Of a stretch of DNA of 64,000 bases, positions 6,992 to 50,729 are shown one piece after another. The notes under the pieces were generated by a model. That model was not told the DNA's origin. It was given only the letters and a program-made list of their open reading frames with translations, and made no database searches. Each line of letters opens with the position of its first letter. Positions within the stretch are counted from its first letter, which is position 1. The translations under genes were made by a program, and so were the position numbers. The stretch comes from a virus. Location: positions 1 to 64,000 of IMG/VR virus record IMGVR_UViG_3300017991_004311, one strand, 5' to 3'.

Positions 6992-9282
6992 AATACCTAC
7001 TTGCACTGCTTGCATTCCTAACCCTGTGTGGCAGCGCGTTTGGAACCTACACGTACAAGCAGGAAATCACAGTATCTGCCTCAGCCGCCAAGACAAACAT
7101 TCCTGTCGAAGTCGTGCTCAACGCCGACGATTTCGATTTCTCCCATTGTCGCTCTGATTTCTATGACCTGGAAATCCGGGCCAGCGACGAGACTACGGCA
7201 CTCAATTACTACCGGATGTACTACCTCGATTGCCGTCCTACCGGGATTGATGATGCCATGTCGCCGCAAGGGACCTCGTGGAACTACGTGCAGCCACAGG
7301 CATACTACTACAGTTCTGCGAATACCTGCACCTATGTGGTCTATATGGACGATGCGCGAGACACATGCGTGAGTAAATTCGATCACACCACGAAGCTATG
7401 GGCTGATTCGGTACAGGTCTACACCGAGGGCGAGGCGAACAATCACGCGGCGAGCTGCATCTTCGTGGATTCGAGTGGCTATATCCACGTGATTGGGGGT
7501 GAGTACACCGGGGCTGCCGACGGGCTAAAACACTACAAAAGCACTAACCCAGAAGATATCTCCGCATGGGGGGACGCGGGTACGATTGAAAATGTTGAGG
7601 CGCTTACCCTTCCCTATGCGCTGGTAAGGGATAACGGCGATATCTGGCTATTTTCACGGGACAAACATGGCGCGAACGATTCTCGGACTGCATTGAATAT
7701 CAGCACTGATGACGGGGCCAACTGGCAGACGATGAAGCATATCATTGATTCTGATGAACGACCCTATTTCGGTGGCGCGGTGGAGGACGATTCGGGCAAT
7801 ATCTGGATCGCCTGGACACACAGCAACGCCGGGGGGAGTAGCGAAAATACGTATTGTGCTAAGTGCGTCGGCGCGGCCTCCGGGACCTGGAAGGCTGCCG
7901 ATGATACGGTAGTTACCGCGCCGTTTGACGGGACGGAAGCGGAGACATGTGTTGCAGCGACGGCATCGAACTCAGAGACATTTCCGGTGGACATCACCTT
8001 GGTCGATGATAAGCCGCTCATTGTGTACAATGATGATACCGGGGTTGCGGGTGATTGGACTCTAAAGACAGCCAAGTGGAGTGGCTCAGCATGGTCTACT
8101 CACACAGTGTATCAACACAGTTATTATCCTACCGAGGCAGCGTGGTCCTATTTGACTGCTGAGCTGTACTCCACGAGCGGGACGAGTAACGTTACGTGTT
8201 ATTTTGTGGTAGGAGAAGGGTCAAGCGGTGAATGGAATTATGGCGGCGATATCCTGGCGTATGCGTCTACCGATGCGGGGTCCACCTGGACGGCGTCAGC
8301 GACGATCAAGACACTCGATTACAAGCACGATTGGGCTGATATCGAAACTCATTTTAACCGCAATATCAAATATGCCCGAACCACGGAGGGCCGGAAGAGC
8401 ACCGCGACGGCGTGCCGGTTTGTATTTACGGAAACGTTTGGTGGTAACTGGGATGAGACGAATACGGGGGAGATATGGGCCTACGGGACCGAACAGGAGG
8501 AGGCGCGGCTATGGGCCAAGATGAGCCAGTTGTGTACCAGTGATTCTTTGTGGCTTTACTATGGTTGTGCCACTGACAGTACCGATGCTTCGACACGAGC
8601 GATTATGTATCTGTGGGATGATTTCGAGACCTATGCTGACGGGGATCGTAATCCTACAGGGTGGGTGACTGGTAGTAAAGGTGAAGTTGAAATTGATGAT
8701 GCGTATGCGCGGGAGACATTGAGTAATAAAGCCTGGGCTAGCGAGGGCGGAGACTCAGCCAATGCCTATTGGTATATTCCGTTCGGGACGACCATGAGCG
8801 TAGACAATGGGCATGAGATTTACTGGTCCTGGCTGGTGGACGATCTAGACGAAGGGGTTCTGGCTGCATTGATGCCGGATTCGACCGTAGGGGCGAGCGC
8901 AACGGTATGGATGAAGATGGACGTGAATAATACGGATATTTCCTACTACGACGGGGAGTGGAAGGACGTATTGACTTCTCTGAGTGCTGAACAGTGGTAC
9001 GTGTTCAAGGTATACAATGTCGATTTCACAAACCATCAATTCGACATCGACGTAGCGACTGACCATGGGGTGACTGGTACGAACGCCAATGGAAGCTTCC
9101 GGGACGGGACAAATAGCCAGATAACCCGGTTCTTCGCCAATAACGGGGATATTAATGAGCATGAGTGGTTTGACGATATTGTAGCCTATCCGGTGACATC
9201 TATATCGCAGACGTTCGGCTCGGAGACGGAGGTGTCACCTACACCGTCAGCTATGGAAGCGATCATCGTAACATTTTGGTAA
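6988..9282 (+). CDS. DUF2341-like protein with BNR/Asp-box beta-propeller (adhesin or glycan-binding/hydrolase), signal-peptide-like N-terminus
   Basis: Asp boxes STDDGANW and STDAGSTW. DUF2341-like halves FDFSHCRSD..DLEIRASDETTALNYY and ARLWAKM...LWLYYG...WDDFE. Confidence 0.65.
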   Translation: MKYLLALLAFLTLCGSAFGTYTYKQEITVSASAAKTNIPVEVVLNADDFDFSHCRSDFYDLEIRASDETTALNYYRMYYLDCRPTGIDDAMSPQGTSWNYVQPQAYYYSSANTCTYVVYMDDARDTCVSKFDHTTKLWADSVQVYTEGEANNHAASCIFVDSSGYIHVIGGEYTGAADGLKHYKSTNPEDISAWGDAGTIENVEALTLPYALVRDNGDIWLFSRDKHGANDSRTALNISTDDGANWQTMKHIIDSDERPYFGGAVEDDSGNIWIAWTHSNAGGSSENTYCAKCVGAASGTWKAADDTVVTAPFDGTEAETCVAATASNSETFPVDITLVDDKPLIVYNDDTGVAGDWTLKTAKWSGSAWSTHTVYQHSYYPTEAAWSYLTAELYSTSGTSNVTCYFVVGEGSSGEWNYGGDILAYASTDAGSTWTASATIKTLDYKHDWADIETHFNRNIKYARTTEGRKSTATACRFVFTETFGGNWDETNTGEIWAYGTEQEEARLWAKMSQLCTSDSLWLYYGCATDSTDASTRAIMYLWDDFETYADGDRNPTGWVTGSKGEVEIDDAYARETLSNKAWASEGGDSANAYWYIPFGTTMSVDNGHEIYWSWLVDDLDEGVLAALMPDSTVGASATVWMKMDVNNTDISYYDGEWKDVLTSLSAEQWYVFKVYNVDFTNHQFDIDVATDHGVTGTNANGSFRDGTNSQITRFFANNGDINEHEWFDDIVAYPVTSISQTFGSETEVSPTPSAMEAIIVTFW

Positions 9283-11880: not shown

Positions 11881-12789
11881 ATGTACCGACACTTTGACCT
11901 GTTCAGCGGTATCGGTGGATTTGCTTTGGCCGCTGGGTGGGCGGGATGGACTACGGTAGGATTCGCGGAGACGAACGACTATGCAAGCAGAGTGCTCAAA
12001 AAACACTGGCCCGATATCTCCAACTACGGCGACGTGCGCGACGTCCCGGCACAAACAGTTGAGCTTGTTACCGGAGGGTTCCCCTGCCAGCCGTTCAGTC
12101 AGGCCGGGAAGCGAAGAGGCGCGAAGGATGACCGTTACCTCTGGTCGGCAATGTTTACAGTTATCAAAAGATGTCGGCCCACTTGGGTGCTTGGTGAAAA
12201 CGTGCCTGGAATCATCAACATGGAACTCGACACAGTGCTTTTTGATTTGGAAGCCGAAGGCTACGCCACAAGGACGCTTGTTATACCGGCTTGTGCCGCG
12301 GACGCCTCGCACCGAAGGAACCGGGTCTGGATTGTGGCCTACCATAACAGCGCAGGACAGCGAGAACTGCGGTGGACCGAGTCAACAGCGCCGCAATACG
12401 AGGTCGCTCAATGCCGTAGTCAGAATATGGCCCACGCCGGTAGCCAACGATGCAACAGGCAGCCAATACACATACAACCAAGGCAACCACAAGAGCATAT
12501 CGCTGAAATTGCCAGGGGCAGTCAGAATGTGGCCCACACCGAAAACGCCCACGGGCGGGGGGCAGACGATACGGAACACACCGGGCGGGGGTATCAGGAA
12601 ACTAGAGGACAGGGTGAGCCAGGTGGAAGGATACAACACTGGCTCCCTGAACCCGACGTGGGTCGAGTGGCTGATGGGGTTTCCCACCGGGTGGACCGAC
12701 TTAGATGTTTAGGTAATGCAGTAGTGCCGCAAGTGGCATATCCGCTATTGCGGTGGATGAGAGAAATATTACAAGAGGAGGCACCATGA
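11881..12789 (+). CDS. C5-cytosine DNA methyltransferase, alpha chain (lacks motif IX)
   Basis: DLFSGIGG (I), GGFPCQPFS (IV), ENV (VI), HRRNRVW (VIII), LGNAVVP (X). Confidence 0.92.
   Translation: MYRHFDLFSGIGGFALAAGWAGWTTVGFAETNDYASRVLKKHWPDISNYGDVRDVPAQTVELVTGGFPCQPFSQAGKRRGAKDDRYLWSAMFTVIKRCRPTWVLGENVPGIINMELDTVLFDLEAEGYATRTLVIPACAADASHRRNRVWIVAYHNSAGQRELRWTESTAPQYEVAQCRSQNMAHAGSQRCNRQPIHIQPRQPQEHIAEIARGSQNVAHTENAHGRGADDTEHTGRGYQETRGQGEPGGRIQHWLPEPDVGRVADGVSHRVDRLRCLGNAVVPQVAYPLLRWMREILQEEAP
11981..12712 (+). CDS. Nested alternative-frame methyltransferase beta chain (M.EcoHK31I-beta-like); start uncertain
   Basis: Three WPT(P/I) repeats and terminal LNPTWVEWLMGFPTGWTD (motif IX-like), entirely inside the MTase gene in another frame. 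Confidence 0.75.
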   Translation: MQAECSKNTGPISPTTATCATSRHKQLSLLPEGSPASRSVRPGSEEARRMTVTSGRQCLQLSKDVGPLGCLVKTCLESSTWNSTQCFLIWKPKATPQGRLLYRLVPRTPRTEGTGSGLWPTITAQDSENCGGPSQQRRNTRSLNAVVRIWPTPVANDATGSQYTYNQGNHKSISLKLPGAVRMWPTPKTPTGGGQTIRNTPGGGIRKLEDRVSQVEGYNTGSLNPTWVEWLMGFPTGWTDLDV

Positions 12790-13274
12790 AGATACTTTAC
12801 GTAGGCCTGGTAGTAGCCGTGTTCCTGATAGGCACGGCGGGAATGGCGGCAGAGCCAGGGGCCCGGACCCCCACGGCGATGGGTTCCCACATCCCCACTG
12901 ACCCCAGTGACCCCCTGTGGCTCCGGGAGGTCCAGTTATCCGGGGGCGGGTTCAACGGGGCCTTTGCGGAGGGCGCGAGCACGCACCCGGTCAACCGGGC
13001 CGGGCTGAGTCTCGTGACCCGGATGGGATTCCTGGCAGGGTATCACGTAAGTGATATGCGGACCGGGGGACTCGAACTCGGACTATCCAACAGCGGCAAG
13101 CTCCGTCTCCAGGGGAGCGCGGTCTTTTGGGCCGATACCCCGCAGGGTGGACAGGGTACGAGCGCCCGGATCGGCGCAGGGTACCAGGGGAGCCCTGAGA
13201 GCCTGGCGGTAGGCCTGGACTACATGACCCTACAGGATTCGTGGGGTCTATGGATAGGGATACCAATTAGATGA
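12786..13274 (+). CDS. Exported protein, beta-strand-rich
   Basis: Signal peptide MKILYVGLVVAVFLIGTAGMA; ATGA overlap with the MTase stop. Confidence 0.55.
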   Translation: MKILYVGLVVAVFLIGTAGMAAEPGARTPTAMGSHIPTDPSDPLWLREVQLSGGGFNGAFAEGASTHPVNRAGLSLVTRMGFLAGYHVSDMRTGGLELGLSNSGKLRLQGSAVFWADTPQGGQGTSARIGAGYQGSPESLAVGLDYMTLQDSWGLWIGIPIR

Positions 13275-13280
13275 GGATAC

Positions 13281-13423
13281 GCCCCCGCTGTGGCGTTCTG
13301 GTGAAAACGCTACGTTCGGGAAGACTATCAGGGACCATTAGGCTGAAAACGTGCACGAAGTAAGCCGAACGCTCGGAGCCGTAATCGGTAGTCAACCAGG
13401 TTCGAATTCTGGCAGCGGGGGCA
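13281..13423 (+). ncRNA. tRNA-like RNA with large insert (copy A)
   Basis: 10-bp terminal stem GCCCCCGCTG/CAGCGGGGGC, D-arm GCGTT/AACGC, T-arm CCAGG-TTCGAAT-TCTGG. Confidence 0.7.
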
Positions 13424-13609
13424 TCACAAGGAGGGGAGGATGAAACTAAGGTTATTTTTGCGGTGGACCTTTTCGGACAGTGAGGGGGTAAATAGTGGTT
13501 GTGACGATAAAACAGTGGTTGTGGATGTACCTGAATACCGTGCCCCCTGGGCGATACGTCAAGGCTATCGTTACACTGTTATTGGCGGTGAATGGTTGGA
13601 GGAGGAACC

Positions 13610-14070
13610 ATGACTGACTTCGAGAAGGCCAAAAGATTTACACCATCCTCACAAGCTGGGGGTGGGTGTGGGAGCCGAGGGAAAAGGACATAGTTGTAGA
13701 AGAACCCGAGCTTACGGAAGGGACCATATCTGATGTAAAACGCGGTGGGATATGGATGTATTGGTTGGACGATGGGCCGAGTTTTGTAAGACCAGAAGAT
13801 TGTATTCCCATCCTCCGCTTCCAGCAGCTCGTGGAGGCGGTTGTGGAGATGGGATACGAGGTCAAGTATTCTGGAACCGTAGACCCTGATTTCCAGGAGC
13901 TGACGGGAACTCAGGTCATCATTACGAACCTTACTCGTGACGAGCAAGGCTGTGAAGTGGGACGGAAAATAATAGCTGTTGGTGAATCCCCCACCTTCCA
14001 AGCCGCCATAGAAGCGGCGATCCTGAAAATGGGGGAAAAGGAGGCATCCGATGGACCTGAAGGAAATTGA
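13610..14070 (+). pseudogene. Hypothetical gene with apparent frameshift in an A run near 13631
   Basis: The ATG 13610 with strong RBS is out of frame with ORF 13666-14070. One extra A would give MTDFEKAKKIYTILTSWGWVWEP. Confidence 0.45.
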
Positions 14071-14668: not shown

Positions 14669-16045
14669 ATGTTGCTGAAGGTGAGGGAGAGATGGACGAA
14701 GGTGTTCGGCATTCCCGGGAACACCGAGGATATCCTCGACAGGGCGTTGGCGCGCCGGGAGCCGAATTACTGGCACAGCTACAAGTACAAGCAGGGTACT
14801 TGGGACGGATGGCGCCATTTCTATTTCAGGAAATGGCACGGGTTCCCGACCGGACTCCTGCCGATGGTGGTCAAGCTCCTGGACTCGCTGAACGCCCGGT
14901 ACGAGATCGCCGACCAGTGCCAGGTCATCCCGAGGGACCAGTGGCATCCGCTCCGCCTGCGCGGGATAGAGCTGCGCGATTTCCAGCGGGATACGGTGCA
15001 TGCGGCACTGGAGCGCAAGCGCGGTATCCTGTTCCACGCCACGAACGCGGGCAAGACCGAGAGCGCATGCGGCATCATCCAAACGCTCCATGCACCCACG
15101 CTCTGGGTCACCCACCGTCGCAGCCTCATGCACCAGACGGCCGCGCGCTTGCTGGAGCGGATACCGGACATCACCGTCTCGCGCTACGGTGACGGTCTCA
15201 AGGAGGATGAGGGGACGGTTGTGGTCGCCGTGGTCAACTCCCTCGTCCGCCACCGTGACCTGAAGGGGTTCCTGAAGCGCTTCCGCGTCCTGGTGGTCGA
15301 CGAATGCCACCACCTGGGCGGGAGCACGAAAACATTTTATAAGGTAGCGATGCAGTGCGACGCCTCCTACCGCTACGGTCTCTCCGGGTCGGCCATCCAA
15401 GGGAAGGCGATCGAGGATATGCGGCTCATCGCCTGCCTCGGCCCCGTGATCTCGGAGGTCACGAACCGCGAGCTCATCGACAGGGGGATATCGGCGGAGC
15501 CCCGCATCGTGGCGTTCGGCGTCACCGAACCGGAGGGGGCGCGGTCGTTGGGCTACGAGGACGCCTACGCCCGCGCCGTCGTGGAGAACAGGACCAGGAA
15601 CTCGCTCGTGGTGAGGCGCATCAGGGAATTGGGGGTGCAGGCGTTGGTGATCGTGCGCCTCATCCGCCACGGCGAGCTCCTGGAGGCGATGCTCCGGGAC
15701 GCCGGGGTCGACGCGCGCTTCGTGAGCGGGGAGACGAGCAGCGCGGACCTGTCGGTCGCCCTGGAGGAGTTCCGCGACGGGGCAATCGACACGCTCGTGA
15801 GCACGAACATCTTCAACGAGGGGATCGACGTGCCCGCGATCCGCCATGTCGCCATCGCCGCCGGGGGCAAGTCCTACGTCGAAATCCTGCAGCGGATCGG
15901 ACGGGGACTGAGGCGCAAGGAGGGGGAGAACGTGCTCCACGTGACCGACTTCCGCGATTTGGCGAACCGGTACCTGAGGGAACACTCGGAGGTGCGCATG
16001 GCCGAGTACGAGCGCCAGGGGTTCACGGTGGAAGACGGTGGTTGA
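14669..16045 (+). CDS. SF2 DEAD/DEAH helicase (UvsW-like)
   Basis: ATNAGKT, VVDECHH, GLSGS and QRIGRGLR motifs. Confidence 0.93.
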   Translation: MLLKVRERWTKVFGIPGNTEDILDRALARREPNYWHSYKYKQGTWDGWRHFYFRKWHGFPTGLLPMVVKLLDSLNARYEIADQCQVIPRDQWHPLRLRGIELRDFQRDTVHAALERKRGILFHATNAGKTESACGIIQTLHAPTLWVTHRRSLMHQTAARLLERIPDITVSRYGDGLKEDEGTVVVAVVNSLVRHRDLKGFLKRFRVLVVDECHHLGGSTKTFYKVAMQCDASYRYGLSGSAIQGKAIEDMRLIACLGPVISEVTNRELIDRGISAEPRIVAFGVTEPEGARSLGYEDAYARAVVENRTRNSLVVRRIRELGVQALVIVRLIRHGELLEAMLRDAGVDARFVSGETSSADLSVALEEFRDGAIDTLVSTNIFNEGIDVPAIRHVAIAAGGKSYVEILQRIGRGLRRKEGENVLHVTDFRDLANRYLREHSEVRMAEYERQGFTVEDGG

Positions 16046-16197
16046 CACGGGCCTGAGGACCAGGGACGGGCATCCGGTTCTCTACTCCGACATGACGGGT
16101 GAGTTCTACGAGCGGTGCGACGAGCATGGGGGCACTATGTTGATCCAGAGATCGGAGATGTGCTGAGGATCGGGAATCGGTGTTAATACAAGGTGCT

Positions 16198-16725
16198 ATG
16201 GGTGAAACGATAGAGAGGGAACCGAGGCGGACCCCGAGGCAGGGGCAGGTCGAGTTGGCCAAGGCGAGATACCGGCGCAGTTTTTATCCACGCGCCGACT
16301 TCTCCCGGTTTACAGCGCGCCAGCTCCGCGTGCTCGATCTGGGAATACTCTACCAGCGCGTGCGGAGGGAGCGCACGGGGCAGGCATTCTACACCGTGTT
16401 CTATCCGGCGCGGAGCGATCCGAGGAGGACCACGAACTGGAAGCACATCTCGGCCGCACTCGCGATCGTCGATGACAACGGCTACGATTGGACCGGGTTC
16501 ATCGTGGCGCAGTTCGAGGAGCTGGAGGGGTTCGCGAGGTGCCCGCTCCCGGCCCCCCGGAACATCAGCTCATCGGGGGCGATCGACCGATACGACCGGT
16601 GGTCGATGCGCGAGCGCCAGAAGGGACTGGGATCGCGGCCATTGACGCGCGGAGAGAAGGAGCGGGAGCGGAGGGAGGACGGGGAGTACGCGAGGAACGT
16701 TATTCGGAAAGCGAATGGAAAATAA
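16198..16725 (+). CDS. Hypothetical replication-associated protein
   Basis: ORF between two helicases, downstream of a GGTGTTAATA motif. Confidence 0.55.
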   Translation: MGETIEREPRRTPRQGQVELAKARYRRSFYPRADFSRFTARQLRVLDLGILYQRVRRERTGQAFYTVFYPARSDPRRTTNWKHISAALAIVDDNGYDWTGFIVAQFEELEGFARCPLPAPRNISSSGAIDRYDRWSMRERQKGLGSRPLTRGEKERERREDGEYARNVIRKANGK

Positions 16726-16935
16726 AACTCGCATTGGGGTACCAAATAGCGCCGATATCGTATAGTGTAATACTATTATATTATATAGTGTTTTTGGTGG
16801 CCTTATTCGCGATTTTTTTGTCAAGCCAGTCCTGCGTTTCAGCGATTTTGGCGATTTTTTGAAGAAAATTGCGAAAAAAGAAAGGATGAATTGTGAAATG
16901 CTTGCCTACAAAGGGTTTCAAGGGATGAGAATTTA
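16717..16935. repeat. AT-rich direct repeat copy 1 flanking the helicase gene
   Basis: About 143 bp nearly identical to 18319-18461, with weaker similarity continuing beyond. Confidence 0.92.
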
Positions 16936-16961
16936 TGACAACTTTATTCTGAAGGTGAAAA

Positions 16962-18278
16962 ATGTCTGACCACTATCCCTTTGACGTACATTTCCAGCGC
17001 ATCCTGATCGCGTTGGTGTTCAGGCGTCGCGGGTTCCTGCGCCAGTTCCGCGAGGTGCTGGCCCCGGCGCGTTTCTCCAAGATCGTGCACGGGGTCATCA
17101 TGGAAGTTACCAATGACCTCCATGACCGTTTCGGGAGCGCGACCCCGGAGATGGTCCTGCAGGAGATACGGCGCCTGGCGGGCTCCCCCTCCCTGCGGAG
17201 CATCGACCCGACGGTCTACGAGCGCGAGGTCAGGCGCATCGAATCCCTCGACTGCGGCGACGAGGCGGACTACACGCGGGAACTCCTGGTGGCGTTCGCC
17301 CGGAGGCAGGCGCTCGCCGCGTTCGTGCAGCGCGCGGCCGACACCGCCGAACAGGGGCCGACCTCTGAGGACTACGATCGCATGGGGCGCGAGTACGACC
17401 GCATCATCCAGATAGGGCACGACATCACGGACACGGGGACGTGGTTCTTCCGGGACGCGAGGGAGTGGCTCCGCCGCCATGAGCGGGTCAGGGAGGGGCG
17501 GGTGCTGACCATGATCCGACGCCTCGACGAGAAGACGCACGGGCTCGGCGCGGGCGAGGTCGGCGTCATCCTCGGGTTCAAGGGGAGGGGGAAGACGGCG
17601 ACGCTGGTGAACCTGTCCGCCGCCGCCATCTTCCAGCGCAAGCGGATCGTCTACTACACCGTGGGGGACCAGGAGGAGACGTACATCAACGCCCGCCTCG
17701 CCGCGCGCGTCTCCGGGTCCCCCGCGAACGAGATCAGCGATCACGAAGGGCAGCTCCTCCGGAAACTGGAGGAAGTGCATTCGATGTTCCGGGGTGATTT
17801 CGTGTGCAAGTTCTTCGTTCCCGGAACCACGGTGCGCCAGCTCGACGCCCACCTGACCACCCTGGAGGGGCTGGGGTACGTGCCCGACATGGTGGTCGTC
17901 GACTACGGGGACCAGCTCGCCCCCGGGAGGAGTCGGGGGAGCGGATGGGAGGACCAGCAGGCGGCCTACAACGAGCTCATCGCCCTGGCGGGGGAGCGTC
18001 GGGTGGCGTTGTGGACCGCCTCGCAGATAGGCCGGAGCCAGGGGGACAAGGCGGTGGTGGGCTTGGAGGATGCGGCATATTCCTTCGCGAAGCTGGCGGG
18101 GGTGCATCTGGTGCTCTCGCTCTCGCAGCTCCCGGAGGAGCGCAGGCGCGACCAGATGCGGATCGTGGTCGCGCACCAGCGCCACGGGCCGGCGGGGGGC
18201 GCGGTCCTGGTGGACTACGACTGGGACCGGATGCTGGTTCAGGCGGCGCGGGAGGGGAACGAGGATGTCACCGGATGA
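16962..18278 (+). CDS. Replicative DnaB/gp41-like (SF4) helicase
   Basis: Walker A GFKGRGKT, VVVDYGD, LWTASQ and QRHGP motifs. Confidence 0.9.
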   Translation: MSDHYPFDVHFQRILIALVFRRRGFLRQFREVLAPARFSKIVHGVIMEVTNDLHDRFGSATPEMVLQEIRRLAGSPSLRSIDPTVYEREVRRIESLDCGDEADYTRELLVAFARRQALAAFVQRAADTAEQGPTSEDYDRMGREYDRIIQIGHDITDTGTWFFRDAREWLRRHERVREGRVLTMIRRLDEKTHGLGAGEVGVILGFKGRGKTATLVNLSAAAIFQRKRIVYYTVGDQEETYINARLAARVSGSPANEISDHEGQLLRKLEEVHSMFRGDFVCKFFVPGTTVRQLDAHLTTLEGLGYVPDMVVVDYGDQLAPGRSRGSGWEDQQAAYNELIALAGERRVALWTASQIGRSQGDKAVVGLEDAAYSFAKLAGVHLVLSLSQLPEERRRDQMRIVVAHQRHGPAGGAVLVDYDWDRMLVQAAREGNEDVTG

Positions 18279-18318
18279 TGTTTGGCTGCGTTCTGAGGCA
18301 AAATTAATTTATAGGGGC

Positions 18319-18537
18319 GGAAAATAAAACCCGCATTGGGGCACCAAATAGCGCCGATATCGTATAGTGTAATACTATTATATTATATAGTGTTTTTGAT
18401 AGCCTTATTCGCGATTTTTTTGTCAAGCCAGTTCTACGTTTCAGCGATTTTGGCGATTTTTGCGGCAAGATCGGAACCACAAGGGAAACGTGATTCTGAA
18501 ACCCTTGCCTATACAGGGTTTCGGGGGATAAGGATTG
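18319..18537. repeat. AT-rich direct repeat copy 2
   Basis: Matches 16717 onward at an offset of 1602 bp; includes hairpin GAAACCCT/AGGGTTTC. Confidence 0.92.
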
Positions 18538-18571
18538 CATCATAAAAGCATGTGTTCACCGGATAACGCCT

Positions 18572-19459
18572 ATGAACCTGCGCCAGGCGCTTGAGCGTTT
18601 CGGTCCGGTCACGGAGCACGGCGACGAGTTCCTGACCACATGCCCGGAATGCCGGAAGGCACAGCATTTCTATGTCAACCGTAGGAAACTGAAGGGCTAT
18701 TGCCAGCGGTGCGGATACCGCGTCGGCCCCCGTTGGATCGGCAGATTGCTCGGTGGGGATCTGGACGAGACCACCGAGGACCGCATCCGGGAATTGTTGC
18801 GTAACGATCGTGCCGGCACGGACGCGCTCGCCCTCCCGGATGAGACCGGTTACGATTTCGGCACCAGGACCGGTAGGTGTGCTCTGCGCTATTGGATGAA
18901 GCGCGGGTTGAGTACTGGGCAGCTTGAATCCTACCGTGTCGGCTATTGCGCTTCGGGCAGGTACGAGGGGAGGCTCATCATCCCGGTCTACGAGCGCGGC
19001 GAGCTCGTCTATTTCCAGGCGCGCAGTTTCGGCGTGATGTTCCCCCCGTACCTGAACCCGCCGAGGGGGCGGGGAAGGGGCAAGTCGGAGGTCGTGTTCA
19101 ACCTCGACAGCGCGTCGGGGACGGGCACGGCGGTCGTCACCGAGGGCGTGTTCGACGCCATGGCGGTCGGCCCCTCCGGAGTATCGCTTTTCGGCAAGTT
19201 CGCCAGCGGAGCGCAGTTGGGAAAACTGGCGGAGCGCGGCCTCTCCGAGGTCTATGTCATGCTCGATTCGGAGGAAAAGGATCCCGATATTCCCCATCAG
19301 GCACGGGCGCTCGCCCGGCAACTCGCTTCCTACCTTTTGGACGTCACCGTCCGCGTGTGCAGGCTCCCGCACGGCGATCCTGGTTCGTCGTCACGCGAAG
19401 ACATCTCTCGGGCCCTCGCGCGCGCCACCCCCTTGACACTTTGTGATATTGTGCTATAA
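18572..19459 (+). CDS. DNA primase (Zn finger plus TOPRIM)
   Basis: CPEC...CQRC, GRLIIP, VTEGVFDAM and MLDSE motifs. Confidence 0.92.
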   Translation: MNLRQALERFGPVTEHGDEFLTTCPECRKAQHFYVNRRKLKGYCQRCGYRVGPRWIGRLLGGDLDETTEDRIRELLRNDRAGTDALALPDETGYDFGTRTGRCALRYWMKRGLSTGQLESYRVGYCASGRYEGRLIIPVYERGELVYFQARSFGVMFPPYLNPPRGRGRGKSEVVFNLDSASGTGTAVVTEGVFDAMAVGPSGVSLFGKFASGAQLGKLAERGLSEVYVMLDSEEKDPDIPHQARALARQLASYLLDVTVRVCRLPHGDPGSSSREDISRALARATPLTLCDIVL

Positions 19460-37273: not shown

Positions 37274-37615
37274 GTGGTTGTCATGAACACGTCCGATATC
37301 GCCTTTCTCGGCAACGACGGCGTGATCTCGACGGTCGAGGAGCAGATGGACGACAGCGGGTTCGACCCCGCCTCGATTCGTCTGCTCTTTTCCGTTAAGG
37401 ACAACCTGAAGGGGGGGTTGGACGCGCTCATCGCCTACCTGTACTATTGGGAGGGGAAGACCCAGTCGGAGATAGCCAGGATCATCGGCGTCTCCGCCTC
37501 CTTCGTGTTCAACCGCCTGCAGGACTTCCGTGAAGCCGTGCGCGGTTCCCGGGAGTGCCGTGAACTCTGGGAAGAGATGGTCGGGGGCAACGGCGACGGG
37601 GAGGTCACCGGATAG
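37274..37615 (+). CDS. Sigma-region-4-like HTH protein
   Basis: YYWEGKTQSEIARIIGVS. Confidence 0.65.
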   Translation: MVVMNTSDIAFLGNDGVISTVEEQMDDSGFDPASIRLLFSVKDNLKGGLDALIAYLYYWEGKTQSEIARIIGVSASFVFNRLQDFREAVRGSRECRELWEEMVGGNGDGEVTG

Positions 37616-37616
37616 C

Positions 37617-38435
37617 ATGGAGATACTCACGAGGTCACCGCAGCCGATTCACCGCCCGTGCTGGGAGCTGAGCGACCGGAACACCCCGGCGGTGCGTTGG
37701 GTGGACGAGCATATCGGCATCCCGTTGTGGAGCAAACAGATCGAGGTATTGAACGCGGTTTTCACGCAGGGGTCCGTCACGGTGAGGAGCGGGCACGGGA
37801 TCGGGAAGACGCTCATCGCGGCCGTGATCACGCTCTGTTTCATCGACACGCTCAGGCCGAGCAAGGTCATCACCACCGCCCCAACCTGGCGCCAGGTGGC
37901 CCATATCCTCTGGGCGGAGATCAACACGCTCTATCGCAAGTCGAAGATCCCGCAGCTCATCGGGGGGCGGATGCTGAACATGAGCTACTGGCTCAGCGAC
38001 GAGCATTTCGCGGTCGGGTTCCACCCCCGCGAGAACCGCCTGGAGGAGTTCCAGGGTTACCACAGCCCGAACATCCTCATCATCATGGACGAATCCCCCG
38101 GCATCTCCCAAGTGCTCTACGACGCGGCGATGGGGCTCATGACCACGAACGCCTACATCCTCCAGATCGGCAACCCGACCGAGCCGGCGGGGCACTTCTG
38201 GGGATCGTTCCAGGACGATGCGTACCACAAGGTGCACGTGTCCTGCTTCGACAGCCCGAACGTGACCGGGGAGGCGCACATCCCCGGGCTGGTCACGAGG
38301 GAGTGGATCGAGGCGAGGAGGAATGACTGGGGGGAGGACGACCCCCGCTACAGGAACAAGGTCCTGGGCGAGTTCTCCGACACCACGGAGGACCGCGGCA
38401 TCCCGATGGATTGGATCAGGGCGGCGTTCGCATGA
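37617..38435 (+). CDS. Terminase large subunit, ATPase part
   Basis: RSGHGIGKT, TAPTWRQV, IIMDES and IGNP motifs. Confidence 0.9.
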   Translation: MEILTRSPQPIHRPCWELSDRNTPAVRWVDEHIGIPLWSKQIEVLNAVFTQGSVTVRSGHGIGKTLIAAVITLCFIDTLRPSKVITTAPTWRQVAHILWAEINTLYRKSKIPQLIGGRMLNMSYWLSDEHFAVGFHPRENRLEEFQGYHSPNILIIMDESPGISQVLYDAAMGLMTTNAYILQIGNPTEPAGHFWGSFQDDAYHKVHVSCFDSPNVTGEAHIPGLVTREWIEARRNDWGEDDPRYRNKVLGEFSDTTEDRGIPMDWIRAAFA

Positions 38436-39172
38436 GGGTGCTCGGGGGGGATTACGCGAGGATGGGACCGGACCAGACGGTGTTCTGCCTCGCCGACAAC
38501 GAGGGATGGTCGGAGCATGTCGTGCACGGGTTCTGGGAGTTCTCCGGGTTGAAGAACCCGCAGCGCGTGCAGAGGACGAGGGACCTTTATGTGTCAGAGC
38601 ATCCGATGTTCGTGTCGGTGGACGCGGTGGGGATCGGCTCGGGCACGGCGGACGATCTGGAGGCGATCGGGGTCCCGGTGTTCCGGGTGATGGGGGGAGC
38701 GGCGGCGTTCAACCCGGACTACTACGATCTGCGTTCGGAACTGTTCTGGATCATGCGGAGGAAGTTCGAGCGCCATATCATGCACATCGTCGCCCAGGGG
38801 GTCACGAAGGCGCAGAGGGAGAGGATCATCCGGGAGGTCAGCAGCCTCCGTTATTATACCACGTCGAAGGGGAAGATCAGGTTTGAGTCGAAGGAGGAGT
38901 ACATCAAGCGGGTCGGGAAGTCCCCCGATTATGCCGACACCCTCTCCTACACCATGGTGACCATGGAGATGTGGGAAGGGGCGATGGGCGACCAGGGCGA
39001 CATCGAGGTGCTCGCCGGCGATCCCGGCCCGTATCCGAGGAGCACGTGGGGCGGAGGGGGGATCGGGAATCGGGACAACATCCCCGACGACCCGGATAGG
39101 GGAGCGTTCGGCGAGGTGTCGATCGTGCGATTCGGAGTCAGGGACGACTACGACGATGAGGATGACGGGTAG
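38432..39172 (+). CDS. Terminase large subunit, RNase H-like nuclease part
   Basis: GGDYARMGPDQTV, VDAVGIGSG and KSPDYAD; ATGA overlap with the ATPase part. Confidence 0.85.
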   Translation: MRVLGGDYARMGPDQTVFCLADNEGWSEHVVHGFWEFSGLKNPQRVQRTRDLYVSEHPMFVSVDAVGIGSGTADDLEAIGVPVFRVMGGAAAFNPDYYDLRSELFWIMRRKFERHIMHIVAQGVTKAQRERIIREVSSLRYYTTSKGKIRFESKEEYIKRVGKSPDYADTLSYTMVTMEMWEGAMGDQGDIEVLAGDPGPYPRSTWGGGGIGNRDNIPDDPDRGAFGEVSIVRFGVRDDYDDEDDG

Positions 39173-39205: not shown

Positions 39206-39382
39206 GCCTCCGTTGTGGTGGAATAGGTAGACACTAGTGAAAGGCATAAGCGAGTCTAGTGGTGTAAATTTGGGAACACGTCTCCGAAACTATAAACGAT
39301 TTGCCATCGTAGGAAGTAGGAGGGATACCAGGTTAGAGTCCTGGCGGGACATCCAAAGTGCAAATCCTTGGCAGCGGGGGCA
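39206..39382 (+). ncRNA. tRNA-like RNA (copy B) apparently containing a nested second tRNA-like unit
   Basis: Terminal stem GCCTCCGTTG/CAGCGGGGGC; two D-like arms and two T-like arms. Confidence 0.6.
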
Positions 39383-39400
39383 TACAAGAGGAGGAATGGC

Positions 39401-39802
39401 ATGAAGCTCGACACTGAGGCGTTGGTGAAAGCGTTGGGGACTCTGGAGGGCATGCAGAAGAAAGTGAATGCCCAGAAAGCGGCTATTTTGGCGATGCTCC
39501 CGGTCCGCACGGGTGACGCGGTATTCTATGACGGGAACCCCGGCAAGGTGATTGATAGGAGCGTCATGGGACCGCCGTTCTGGATGAAGGTGTCCGTCAT
39601 GGTGATTATCGGCGAGAAGGGCAGGGATTTTGATTACGCCGATGTTGACCAGAAGACGCTGCGGTTCCCGTTCGATGATAAGGCGGTAGGGAATTATTCG
39701 CCCCGTGACCACAAGGCCGATTGGGACAAGTTGACGTTCTTCCCCCGGAGGGAGGAGGCGGTTGAGGACCCACTTCAACGCCCGGATATGGAGGGATGCT
39801 GA
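39401..39802 (+). CDS. Hypothetical protein
   Basis: GAGGAGG RBS directly after the ncRNA. Confidence 0.6.
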   Translation: MKLDTEALVKALGTLEGMQKKVNAQKAAILAMLPVRTGDAVFYDGNPGKVIDRSVMGPPFWMKVSVMVIIGEKGRDFDYADVDQKTLRFPFDDKAVGNYSPRDHKADWDKLTFFPRREEAVEDPLQRPDMEGC

Positions 39803-48971: not shown

Positions 48972-49104
48972 GACGGGGGTAGCTCAGTTGGTAGAGCGCT
49001 AACGTACCCTGTGCGATTGTTCGGCCTTTTCAGGTTGCGCAGTGGAGGGTTACTTCTCCTGCTAAGAGAGAGGTCGCAGGTTCGAGTCCTGCCCCCCGCC
49101 ACCA
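48972..49104 (+). ncRNA. tRNA-like putative Y RNA (permuted YrlA-like) with encoded CCA
   Basis: TAGCTCAGTTGGTAGAGC D-arm, about 55-nt inserted stem, TTCTC-CTGCTAA-GAGAG anticodon arm, GCAGG-TTCGAGT-CCTGC T-arm, ACCA end. Confidence 0.8.
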
Positions 49105-49126: not shown

Positions 49127-49213
49127 GAGAGAAGTGGCGCAGGAAAGGGATACTTCATCATACGGAGATGACGCCGAAAGGCATGTTCCCTGTCCGATTG
49201 TTCCACTTCTCTT
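49127..49213 (+). ncRNA. Second putative Y RNA (YrlB-like)
   Basis: Terminal stem AGAGAAGTGG/CCACTTCTCT with two internal hairpins; shares stem motifs with the upstream RNA; abuts the TROVE gene. Confidence 0.75.
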
Positions 49214-49235: not shown

Positions 49236-50729
49236 ATGAAGTTCAACCAGCCGGTTGCGAACAGCACGAAGACGGTCAATTTCGAGGGGGCGGTGAGCTA
49301 TCGCACCGATCCCAGAACGGAACTAGTTTCGCGGGTGCTCTGCACGCTCGTAGGTGAGCCGAAGTTCTACGCTTCGGGGGAGGAGAGCGATCAGGAATTG
49401 GTGACGCTTTTGCGCAGTGTGGGCGCAGCTAACCCTGAATTCTGCCTGAAACTGGCGGCGTACGCCCGCAACGAGATGCACTTGCGCTCGGTGCCGCAGC
49501 TCATTTTGGTGGAGATGGCGCAGCTCGACAGCGTGAGGGGGACGGGTCTGCTCTTGAAATATGCGCCCGCCATCATCCGCAGAGCCGATGAGATCACCGA
49601 GTGCATCGCCTACCAGATCGGCAAATTCGGACGATCAATCCCGAAGCGGTTGAAGAAGGCAATCGCGCTCACGTTCAATTCCTTTTCCCGCTACCAATTC
49701 GCCAAGTACAACCGCGATGGCCAGGTAAGGATGCGGGACGCCATGTTCCTTTGCCATCCCAATCCGAAGGACGAGGAGCACGGGTTGATATTCAGGCAGT
49801 TGGCGGATCAGACGCTGGAGCCTCCGAAGACGTGGGAGGTTATCATCTCGGAGAATGGCAGCACGAAGGAAGCATGGGGAGAGGTCGTGCGCTTGTGGCT
49901 GGAGAGCCCCCGGTTTGGGAACTATATGGCGGCGCTTCGGAATCTGAGAAATCTTCTACAGGCTAAGGTTGACGCGGGATTGATGCGGCGGGTATGCGAT
50001 CAGCTCCGGGATAGGGAGAACGTAAGGCGGAGCAAGCAGCTCCCGTTCCGTTTTTTGTCCGCGTACCGCCAGATTGAGCGGGTTCCGTCTCCGTTTTCCG
50101 GCATGGTGCTGGCGGCCGTCAGCGACGCCATGGACGCGAGCGTGACCAACATCCCTCATCTTCCAGGCATGACCGGGATTTTGGCTGACTTATCGGGTTC
50201 GATGGAATCGCCGTTGTCGGAGCGTGGTTCGCTCACATATAGCGATGTCGGGGCCGTATTGGGCGCGGGCATCGACACTATATCAAATGGATTTGTGGTC
50301 GGGTTCGGCGAGATCGCGGAATTGGCGGTGCTGAATCGGCGGGATAGTGTGCTTACCAATGCACAGAAGATTCGGCGCATGGATGTCGGGGGAAGCACGA
50401 ACGCATGGAGGGCAATGGAACTTCTGGAGCGGGAGCATATTGTGCTCGATCGGGTGATCTTATTGTCGGACATGCAGTGCTGGGACAGTTCCCCGTGGTC
50501 CGAGAGTTTCGCTGATTCGTTCCGTTCCTACCGGAAGACCGTTGCCCCCAAGTGTCTGTTGTATTCGGTTGATCTTGCGGGCTATGGGCAGGGGGTGCAG
50601 ATCCCTCAGGGCGAATATGGGGTGGCGTTGCTTGCCGGATGGTCGGACCGGTTGTTCCAGTTCATCTCTGGGTGGGAAGAGAATCGGGAATCGCAGGTGA
50701 AGGCAATCGGGAAGTATGATGTGAATTGA
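49236..50729 (+). CDS. rsr: Ro60/Rsr TROVE-domain RNA-binding protein
   Basis: LAAYARNEMHLRS, RADE, YQFAKYN, YMAALRNLRN, SKQLPFRF and vWA MIDAS DLSGSM. Confidence 0.93.
   Translation: MKFNQPVANSTKTVNFEGAVSYRTDPRTELVSRVLCTLVGEPKFYASGEESDQELVTLLRSVGAANPEFCLKLAAYARNEMHLRSVPQLILVEMAQLDSVRGTGLLLKYAPAIIRRADEITECIAYQIGKFGRSIPKRLKKAIALTFNSFSRYQFAKYNRDGQVRMRDAMFLCHPNPKDEEHGLIFRQLADQTLEPPKTWEVIISENGSTKEAWGEVVRLWLESPRFGNYMAALRNLRNLLQAKVDAGLMRRVCDQLRDRENVRRSKQLPFRFLSAYRQIERVPSPFSGMVLAAVSDAMDASVTNIPHLPGMTGILADLSGSMESPLSERGSLTYSDVGAVLGAGIDTISNGFVVGFGEIAELAVLNRRDSVLTNAQKIRRMDVGGSTNAWRAMELLEREHIVLDRVILLSDMQCWDSSPWSESFADSFRSYRKTVAPKCLLYSVDLAGYGQGVQIPQGEYGVALLAGWSDRLFQFISGWEENRESQVKAIGKYDVN

Follow-up and report, generated by a model that had tools for sequence, protein, structure and literature searches.

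The genome of an uncultured phage in IMG/VR record IMGVR_UViG_3300017991_004311 contains, at 13281–13423 on the plus strand, a real structured RNA element that is derived from a tRNA and does not decode. The window, by which we mean the whole 64,000-nucleotide stretch of DNA that was analysed, is the first 64 kb of this 98,936-bp record, in which direct terminal repeats are present. The element has the arms of a tRNA and a long closing stem, and an insert stands in place of the anticodon loop. A paralogue is found at 39206 of the same genome. The parts of the element and the start of the next gene are as follows (nt, nucleotides; MFE, minimum free energy; SD, Shine–Dalgarno sequence; ORF, open reading frame).

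13281–13423, plus strand: whole element, 143 nt, with a cloverleaf-like MFE fold
13281–13290, plus strand: 5' strand of the closing (acceptor-like) stem, GCCCCCGCUG in RNA and GCCCCCGCTG in DNA, perfect 10 bp with 13413–13422
13293–13310, plus strand: D arm, GCG / UUCUGGUGAAAA / CGC, pair probability 0.88
13313–13319, plus strand: 5' strand, CGUUCGG, of the stem in the anticodon-arm position, 7 bp with 13365–13371
13320–13364, plus strand: insert of 45 nt replacing the anticodon loop, with borders GAAGACUAU (13320–28) and GAAGUA (13357–62)
13365–13371, plus strand: 3' strand, CCGAACG, of the anticodon-position stem, which reads GCCGAACG together with G13364
13372–13395, plus strand: variable region of 24 nt, with the hairpin GCCG-UAAU-CGGU at 13378–13389 (pair probability ~0.73)
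13396–13412, plus strand: T arm CCAGG-UUCGAAU-UCUGG with a canonical T loop, pair probabilities 0.67–0.75
13413–13423, plus strand: 3' strand of the closing stem, CAGCGGGGGC, and the unpaired A13423; no CCA, UCA instead; identical at 39372–39382
13430–13613, plus strand: SD GGAGGGGAGG and a 57-codon ORF from ATG 13440, with a stop-free translation

The MFE of the 13281–13423 fold is −55.7 kcal/mol (z = −2.3), and in the thermodynamic ensemble the pairs of the closing stem have probabilities of 0.74–1.0 and those of the anticodon-position stem 0.59–0.83. UG precedes the D stem, which has 3 bp and is lengthened in the MFE fold to a 7-bp hairpin spanning 13291–13312. The D loop has GG at 13300–01, so that both parts of a tRNA elbow (a UUCRANY T loop and the D-loop GG) are present, and the equivalent of A14 is U, which is non-canonical. 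The variable region has the length of a class II tRNA variable arm. By sequence comparison with the 39206 element, the 5' strand of the closing stem resembles the 7-bp acceptor of a class II tRNA-Leu with three added pairs. The original prediction, made from the letters of the DNA, described a 10-bp acceptor stem, D and T arms with about 85 nt between them and the lack of CCA, and all of these are found, the distance between the two arms being 85 nt.

The tRNA-like frame is more than chance. When the 99-kb genome was scanned on both strands for T arms placed directly against a closing stem without mismatches, the only case with a 10-bp stem was the 13281 element. ARAGORN, suggested earlier as a check beside tRNAscan-SE, gives a divided answer: a default run finds nothing, and a run that allows introns calls the element. 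The Rfam check, also suggested earlier, returned no family that matches the element, and the tRNA model RF00005 (gathering score 29 bits) has no match in the 401 nt from 13150 to 13550 even at E ≤ 10. Hammerhead, hairpin-ribozyme and K-turn cores were looked for by eye in the element, and none was seen.

The element cannot decode. A 7-nt loop with U33 and a purine at 37 cannot be drawn anywhere, and the 7-bp stem in the anticodon position encloses 45 nt. The acceptor and T stems stack as 10 + 5 bp, versus the 7 + 5 (12 bp) of a tRNA. The missing RF00005 score and default ARAGORN call point the same way, and the earlier reading of the element as an RNA on a tRNA scaffold is supported.

The element begins 7 nt past the preceding stop (13274) and ends 16 nt before ATG 13440, and thus nearly fills the intergenic gap 13275–13439. 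The 57-codon ORF that follows has no Pfam or PHROG match. Neither a sigma70-like promoter nor an intrinsic terminator was found near 13281 or near the paralogue, which has the following parts.

39206–39383, plus strand: paralogue sharing the 10-bp closing stem; D arm of tRNA-Leu type, outer T arm decayed
~39254–39355, plus strand: inner tRNA-like unit of the paralogue, cloverleaf-like, with the 5-bp stem UCUCC/GGAGG

The paralogue is placed between a terminase-like ORF (end 39172) and an ORF starting at 39401, and it scores 20.8 bits (E 0.06) with R1, a single-sequence covariance model. Its outer T arm is degenerate, with a UGCAAAU loop and an A–C mismatch. Its D arm, GUGGAAUAGGUAGACAC, is presumably close to that of a bacterial tRNA-Leu. 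The exact 13-mer GGCAGCGGGGGCA occurs in the window only at 13411 and 39370. The 3' strands of the two closing stems are identical and the 5' strands differ by two C>T, with pairing kept as G–U, which bears out the earlier remark that the end and the 5' stem are common to both elements. When the two copies are aligned, their homology extends from the T arm across the closing stem and on into the SD region. Both copies lie 6 nt upstream of the SD, and the ribosome-binding site and ORF that had been noted directly 3' of each are present, as GGAGG followed by ATG (13440; 39401) within 16–18 nt. The ORFs that follow the two copies are unrelated to each other. In the inner unit of the paralogue, the UCUCC/GGAGG stem encloses GAAACUAUAA-ACGAU-UUGCC-AUCGU-AGGAAGUA, and the T-stem 5' strand of the 13281 element is also found in this unit.

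One look-alike was found outside this genome, at 8025–8145 of the metagenomic contig L095, an AT-rich contig (GC 0.34, vs 0.60 for the phage) with small co-oriented ORFs. The look-alike has a T arm, an acceptor of 7 bp and a D arm (GGGCGGAAAGGAUAACGC) that resembles the one at 13281, and its anticodon-position stem CACG/CGUG encloses two tandem GAAGUA-loop-AACUAU hairpin units. The search pattern imposed one GAAGUA only; the second GAAGUA and both AACUAU are independent of the pattern. An ORF begins at the 3' end of the L095 element (ATG 8141 and 8147), so that a message cut after the discriminator would have almost no leader.

Words of the insert borders recur in the three elements, GAAGUA being present at the insert border of each. 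The composite motif GAA(N)ACTAT..GAAGTA occurs on both strands of the 99-kb genome only in the 13281 insert and at 39286–39318 (shuffle mean 0.01). Within it, ACU at 13324–26 pairs with AGU at 13359–61 with a probability of ~0.76, and the ACU/AGU pairing is found in both copies. The stems in the anticodon position, CGUUCGG/CCGAACG at 13281, UCUCC/GGAGG in the inner unit at 39206 and CACG/CGUG in L095, differ in sequence and are all paired; those of 13281 and 39206 differ at every position and both still pair. Since the borders are conserved while the enclosing stems differ and yet pair, the comparison argues for selection on RNA structure, and the insert is a conserved module and not random filler. 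The GAA/AGUA arrangement presumably resembles a sarcin–ricin (loop E) motif or a UAA/GAN internal loop, with a better fit in the paralogue; we do not claim either.

A pseudoknot in the 13281 element is unsupported. The original prediction had seen two crossing helices, to be read as a pseudoknot or as alternative folds, and the complementarity itself is there: GACTATC (13323–29) and GGTAGTC (13387–93) are perfect 7-bp complements. Dinucleotide shuffles of the element have a mean of 8.3 such perfect 7-bp complements, with at least one in every shuffle, so that the match is no more than chance would give. Neither the 39206 paralogue nor L095 has a counterpart of its 3' partner. An H-type pseudoknot is sterically possible; in the ensemble, which comprises nested folds, the crossing helix has a probability of 0.01, and forcing it costs 3.5 kcal/mol together with the loss of the anticodon-position stem. 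The local conserved duplex between the insert borders takes the place of the proposed pseudoknot.

The original prediction also spoke of an undescribed family. The absence of an Rfam match stands; members beyond the copies in this phage are limited to L095, and the design has precedents. The collection of homologues, likewise suggested, gave the paralogue and L095, to which the pattern scans of viral contigs, metagenomes and genomes and the blastn search added nothing. R1 recovers only these two and weak T-arm matches. A pattern made of the T arm and the 3' end, degenerate or exact, has 0 matches in the viral contigs, and an ACTAT...GAAGTA...T-arm pattern has 0 matches in the metagenomes and genomes. 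The GAAGTA...T-arm pattern matches 68 metagenomic loci, among which L095 is the only look-alike, and nearly all others are ordinary tRNAs, 3' halves of tRNAs at what are probably integration sites, or tRNAs with introns (probably archaeal). In the viral contigs the same pattern has one match, in L083, which was rejected as a homologue, being a minihelix beside a tRNA-Lys. This minihelix of 51 nt (L083:3145–3195, identical in L140, L147 and L155) has a 6-bp acceptor-like stem, a small hairpin and a canonical T arm. On its phage contig it follows a tRNA-Lys(UUU) gene at a distance of ~80 nt, and an SD with a start codon comes ~30 nt after it. The loci matching a GAAGTA..AACTAT..T-loop pattern in the genomes (9) and viral contigs (88) were dismissed as chance matches. 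No match to the element was found by blastn against 50,697 phage records.

Scans with the helicase and the portal as single proteins found no close relative of the phage, and an alignment search with the helicase found 80 distant loci. The nearest relatives, L003 and L004 (47% identity, with a syntenic replication module), were searched for a 13281-type element and none was found; L004 has no room for one upstream of its helicase gene. Both are viral contigs with a GC of 0.34 and share with window positions 14669–19459 of the GC 0.60 phage a four-gene replication module in the same order, at 39–47% protein identity. One of the two is filed in NCBI within a metagenome-assembled genome of Candidatus Omnitrophota.

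The phage also encodes a Ro60 protein, and two RNAs precede its gene.

48972–49104: RNA1, a tRNA-ordered, CCA-ended relative of YrlA, upstream of the Ro60 gene
49127–49213: RNA2, upstream of the Ro60 gene
49236–50729, plus strand: TROVE/Ro60 gene (TROVE domain, E 2.9e-25)

The sole Rfam match at gathering score in the window scan is RF00005 at 48973–49100, with a 68-nt insertion in the anticodon arm. The YrlA model RF02553 matches the T arm (49076–92, model 31–47) and the D arm (48980–97, model 63–81) of RNA1 in permuted order and with ~11 bits each, and only these arms score with it on the whole phage. RNA1 has a perfect promoter, TTGACA-17-TATAGT, in contrast to the promoterless elements at 13281 and 39206. 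Both RNA1 (GGGUUACUUC) and RNA2 (GGGAUACUUC) carry the G(U/A)UACUUC box of other phage YrlAs. Four other Ro60 phages served as positive controls for RF02553 (gathering score 69 bits): their YrlAs score 30–56 bits, lie just upstream of the Ro60 genes and share, before the variable and T arms, the G(U/A)UACUUC box. These cultured phages are Streptomyces phage GiJojo (L084), Gordonia phage Trax (L087), Rhizobium phage RHph_TM39 (L088) and Xanthomonas phage 10KY502B (L089). In each of them the Ro60 gene lies within or beside tRNA gene arrays, with one or two unannotated YrlAs upstream, and in L089 an annotated 'tRNA-Thr' overlaps the YrlA match.

As had been noted earlier, the 13281 element lacks Ro-stem motifs: neither the G(U/A)UACUUC box nor the A and B motifs of RNA1 and RNA2 are present. 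We do not class it as a YrlA RNA, since it has no RF02553 score, no box and an unlike D arm, and lies 35.8 kb from the Ro60 gene. A looser link to Ro60, in which the TROVE protein would bind the element as one more Y-like RNA, or the Y-like RNAs of the phage would dock onto it, we consider rather improbable. The phage does encode a TROVE protein with the two RNAs before its gene, and RNA1 itself has a tRNA frame in which an insert occupies the anticodon position, its D and T arms fitting the YrlA model in permuted order. The sequence GCCGAACG at 13364–71 is a literal GNCGAAN0-1G and stands where YrlA carries this motif, on the strand running towards the variable and T arms (Chen et al. 2014, PMC4201824). 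Furthermore, RNA1, RNA2 and the YrlAs of the four Ro60 phages have in common a UACUUC box to which GAAGUA is exactly complementary, with a local duplex energy of −11.8 kcal/mol. However, the element is 35.8 kb upstream of the Ro60 gene on the same strand, while YrlAs are nearly all within 4 kb (Chen et al.), and RF02553 has not even a partial match on it. The box and the A/B motifs are absent, and the D arm of the element does not resemble that of YrlA, which is near-invariant. The GNCGAANG match involves only 6 specified bases, and phage YrlAs share G(U/A)UACUUC instead. The whole-RNA duplex energies of RNA1 or RNA2 with the elements are no better than those of shuffles, and there is no TROVE gene in the 11 kb of L095 that were examined, out of a contig of 24.7 kb. 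A bolder form of the same idea is very improbable in our judgement: tRNA frames would carry interacting RNA modules, and a Y RNA would guide the Ro60 particle, with any nuclease attached to it, onto tRNA-framed sites in phage mRNA through GAAGUA/UACUUC. If true, such docking would be a base-pairing targeting role for bacterial Y RNAs, which has never been shown so far.

What, then, might the 13281 element do? The account that we favour, though we would put it at somewhat less than an even chance, is that of a non-decoding scaffold derived from tRNA-Leu, which would be cut out of a polycistronic transcript by the host enzymes that form tRNA ends, and would thereby set mRNA ends and release a stable insert-bearing RNA. 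Its frame would be that of a class II (leucine-type) tRNA with an acceptor stem extended by 3 bp. The anticodon loop would have been exchanged for the 45-nt insert, the borders of which, GAA(G)ACUAU and GAAGUA, would form the small conserved duplex. The element would be transcribed within a long rightward phage message, because it fills the gap between two cistrons and lacks both a promoter and a terminator of its own. Host RNase P would see the acceptor, T arm and elbow and presumably cut at 13281. RNase Z or an equivalent would cut after A13423, where there is no CCA anti-determinant and U follows the unpaired A. The cuts would separate the upstream from the downstream message, leaving the next gene a 16-nt leader with its SD, and would free a compact, nuclease-resistant RNA of ~143 nt displaying the insert, which would most likely be a protein-binding or RNA-docking module. 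We prefer this account because the elbow and the closing stem are intact, the decoding part and a promoter are missing, the place between stop and SD is fixed in two copies, and the insert is conserved. L095, with its similar plan, and the separate tRNA-shaped family beside the helicase homologue (see below) also speak for it, and cuts of this kind have been shown or proposed for the t-elements of plants (PMC1920247) and for the YrlA of M. smegmatis (PMC4201824). Other points weigh against it. The 10 + 5 bp stack departs from the 7 + 5 bp that RNase P and RNase Z measure, and the long stem could block cutting; a pure processing signal would not need a conserved insert; and L004, the nearest (distant) relative with a syntenic module, has no such element.

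That the element is a decaying tRNA-Leu pseudogene, or the functionless remnant of a tRNA hit by an insertion, is unlikely. The loss of the A14 equivalent from the D loop, the missing CCA and anticodon loop, the degenerate outer T arm of the paralogue and the lack of a homologue in the nearest relative and in wide scans are what decay would leave. Against this, the closing stem is perfect in one copy and kept in the other by two C>U changes to G–U, and the borders are conserved while the enclosing stems co-vary completely. The words and the plan recur in the unrelated, AT-rich L095 (GC 0.34 vs 0.60), and, in a genome that is compact and uses one strand, each copy fills a gap and keeps a fixed distance to an SD. 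A true tRNA-Leu gene with a spliced intron, as in the 'enigmatic introns' of the Lak megaphages, is highly improbable. The intron-allowing ARAGORN run does report a tRNA-Leu(aag) with a 42-nt intron, and phage tRNA introns, including a tRNA within a tRNA intron that resembles the nested 39206 element, have been reported (PMC6784885). However, the ARAGORN solution requires an intron between positions 32 and 33, C37 and an 8- to 10-bp acceptor. In a manual test a 3-4-3 bulge-helix-bulge could not be drawn at either insert border. The 45-nt insert is far too short for a group I or self-splicing intron, and the Rfam scans gave no intron family. Neither RtcB ligase nor a CCA-adding enzyme was found in the phage, and the 10 + 5 bp stack is unfit for tRNAs of the EF-Tu type. 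Metagenomic tRNAs with inserts (in L111, L127 and L090, for example) keep a readable anticodon loop, unlike the 13281 element.

The element might also be a tRNA-mimic decoy or sponge that titrates a host enzyme, a defence nuclease or a tRNA-binding regulator, which is a slim possibility. Such a role fits the intact T loop and D-loop GG of the elbow combined with the loss of the decoding part, the two copies in a phage that has no ordinary tRNA, and the high RNA stability that the long GC-rich closing stem would give. Yet there is no known target and no defence-related context, the element has no promoter of its own for high expression, and its conserved insert and fixed position before the SD are left unexplained. 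Even less probable, and in our view quite improbable, is a cis-acting role in the translation or stability of the downstream ORF, as a 5' structure that would shield the message or adjust the access of ribosomes and that might switch between the nested fold and the 13323–29/13387–93 helix. The position 6 nt upstream of the SD in both copies, with homology running into the SD region, speaks for it, as does the crossing-helix fold at only 3.5 kcal/mol above the MFE. The two downstream ORFs, however, are unrelated; the SD is unsequestered, with no SD complement seen (the MFE fold covers the element only); the crossing helix is not conserved in the paralogue; and a protective hairpin needs no full tRNA frame.

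The metagenomic tRNA genes mentioned above have inserts of ~45–55 nt directly after a readable anticodon loop, as in L111 (minus strand, 1790–1915) and L127 (minus strand, 5–131), and inserts of the same type occur in L090, L092, L097, L119, L132, L135, L148 and L162. They include Asn GUU, a tRNA with a UGA anticodon and Gln UUG, and one intron has a C/D-box-like UGAUGA. They are probably archaeal intron-bearing tRNAs.

The genome around the element has a GC of ~0.60, and all of the family-matched large ORFs that were examined are on the plus strand. Metagenomes from sediment and from seawater contain near-identical DNA, and the runs listed for the sequence include none of RNA. In four other runs the DNA contigs show no difference wherever they overlap the region, with 13025–13380 uncovered. 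Recognisable genes include the following.

11881–12789: C5 DNA methylase
14669–16045: SF2 helicase
elsewhere: a DnaB-like helicase, a Pol III alpha/UDG fusion, an SbcC-like ATPase, a terminase-like gene and a portal gene

The terminase-like region 37530–39172 consists of two overlapping ORFs, 37530–38435 and 38411–39172, of which the second, the one that was compared with profiles, matches PHROG 2 at profile positions 482–622; a frameshift, an intein, an intron or a wrongly called start might explain the split. No ordinary tRNA was found in the window by default ARAGORN, and no intron-free tRNA was found in the whole genome by the intron-allowing run. Low-threshold ARAGORN calls elsewhere (e.g. 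at 91051, 91414, 59537 and 35816) were not accepted as tRNA-like, being GC-rich coding sequence.

Anticodon-less, tRNA-shaped phage RNAs have been known since T4 species 1 RNA, and their function was never explained. The element at 13281 cannot be regarded as a by-product of a tRNA cluster, because its phage has no real tRNAs. It makes the question of function testable, with its fixed distance before a ribosome-binding site at two places and a small insert motif that can be mutated. If it is true that RNase P and RNase Z cut such elements, phages would use on their messages the 'tRNA punctuation' that is so far known from mitochondria. If the insert does bind a protein or a Ro60–Y RNA particle, the element would be the natural counterpart of the tRNA scaffold that has been engineered to display RNA modules.

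Class II tRNA-Leu (RF00005) shares with the element the acceptor, the UG, the 3-bp D stem, the GG loop, the long variable region and the T arm. It differs in its 7-bp acceptor, versus 10 bp at 13281, where an anticodon loop and an RF00005 score are missing. The tRNAs of Lak megaphages (Devoto et al. 2019, PMC6784885) have inserts of tens of bases in the anticodon region, one of which is itself a predicted tRNA, like the nested 39206 element. Lak tRNAs are read as decodable after removal of the insert, whereas no acceptable anticodon loop can be restored in the 13281 element.

A separate family of tRNA-shaped RNAs of ~145 nt, with a long arm in the anticodon position, was found in AT-rich phages directly downstream of a helicase homologue (L071:7346–7491, L072:5735–5880 and L082:7445–7588). 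Two of its members differ by 12 compensatory pairs, and no TROVE gene or tRNA was found in these phages. In L071 a promoter-like ttgcaa..tataat lies upstream. The family was rejected as a homologue of the 13281 element, as the model built from it, R2, does not match the element.

YrlA (RF02553; PMC4201824; bioRxiv 10.1101/312249) is, like the 13281 element, a tRNA mimic that lacks an anticodon but keeps the D arm, the T arm and the elbow. Its anticodon-position stem carries the Ro60-binding module, the length of its acceptor-like stem varies, and it occurs in phages. The YrlA of M. smegmatis is cut by RNase P and receives CCA (PMC4201824), and the length of the acceptor stem decides whether RNase P cleaves YrlA (Chen et al., PMC4201824). 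YrlA is, however, circularly permuted, with a closed acceptor loop and an open anticodon-side stem, whereas the 13281 element has the normal tRNA order and a closing stem formed from its two ends. YrlA also lies within 4 kb of rsr and has near-invariant D and T stems and, in phages, the G(U/A)UACUUC box, whereas the 13281 element lies 35.8 kb from the Ro60 gene, has a different D arm and lacks the box.

Plant mitochondria have t-elements (Hanic-Joyce et al. 1990; Forner et al. 2007, PMC1920247), tRNA-like structures of non-canonical fold that keep a conserved T arm and stand at gene borders within long transcripts. They direct RNase P and RNase Z cuts at mRNA ends, the making of mRNA ends by these cuts having been proposed and partly shown, and the excised element can be stable (PMC1920247). 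The 13281 element has the same combination of a non-canonical cloverleaf, a T-arm motif and a gene border, and its T-arm motif GGTTCGAATTC agrees with the t-element motif GGTTCRANYCC at 10/11 positions. The differences are that t-elements belong to an organelle and not to a phage, are about tRNA-sized without a large insert, and have cleavage shown for some of them.

Also close in design is T4 species 1 RNA (rnaC, 139 nt; found with rnaD), which like the 13281 element is a phage RNA of ~140 nt without an anticodon. T4 RNAC is a stable RNA of a tRNA cluster, the function of which is still unexplained (PMC9697503). When folded, rnaC has a canonical T arm (CCGGG-UUCGAAU-CCCGG), an acceptor-like stem formed by its ends and long arms in the anticodon region. 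It differs in standing at the end of a real tRNA cluster and in having a mismatched end stem, whereas the 13281 element is alone among protein genes and has a perfect 10-bp stem and the insert motif. No homology between the two was found with R1 (13 bits, E 0.33, essentially T arm only), and they share design, not descent. In summary, the anticodon-less tRNA shape has precedents in T4 species 1 RNA, plant mitochondrial t-elements and YrlA, and the 13281 element is a variant of a kind of phage RNA that is already known and yet unexplained.

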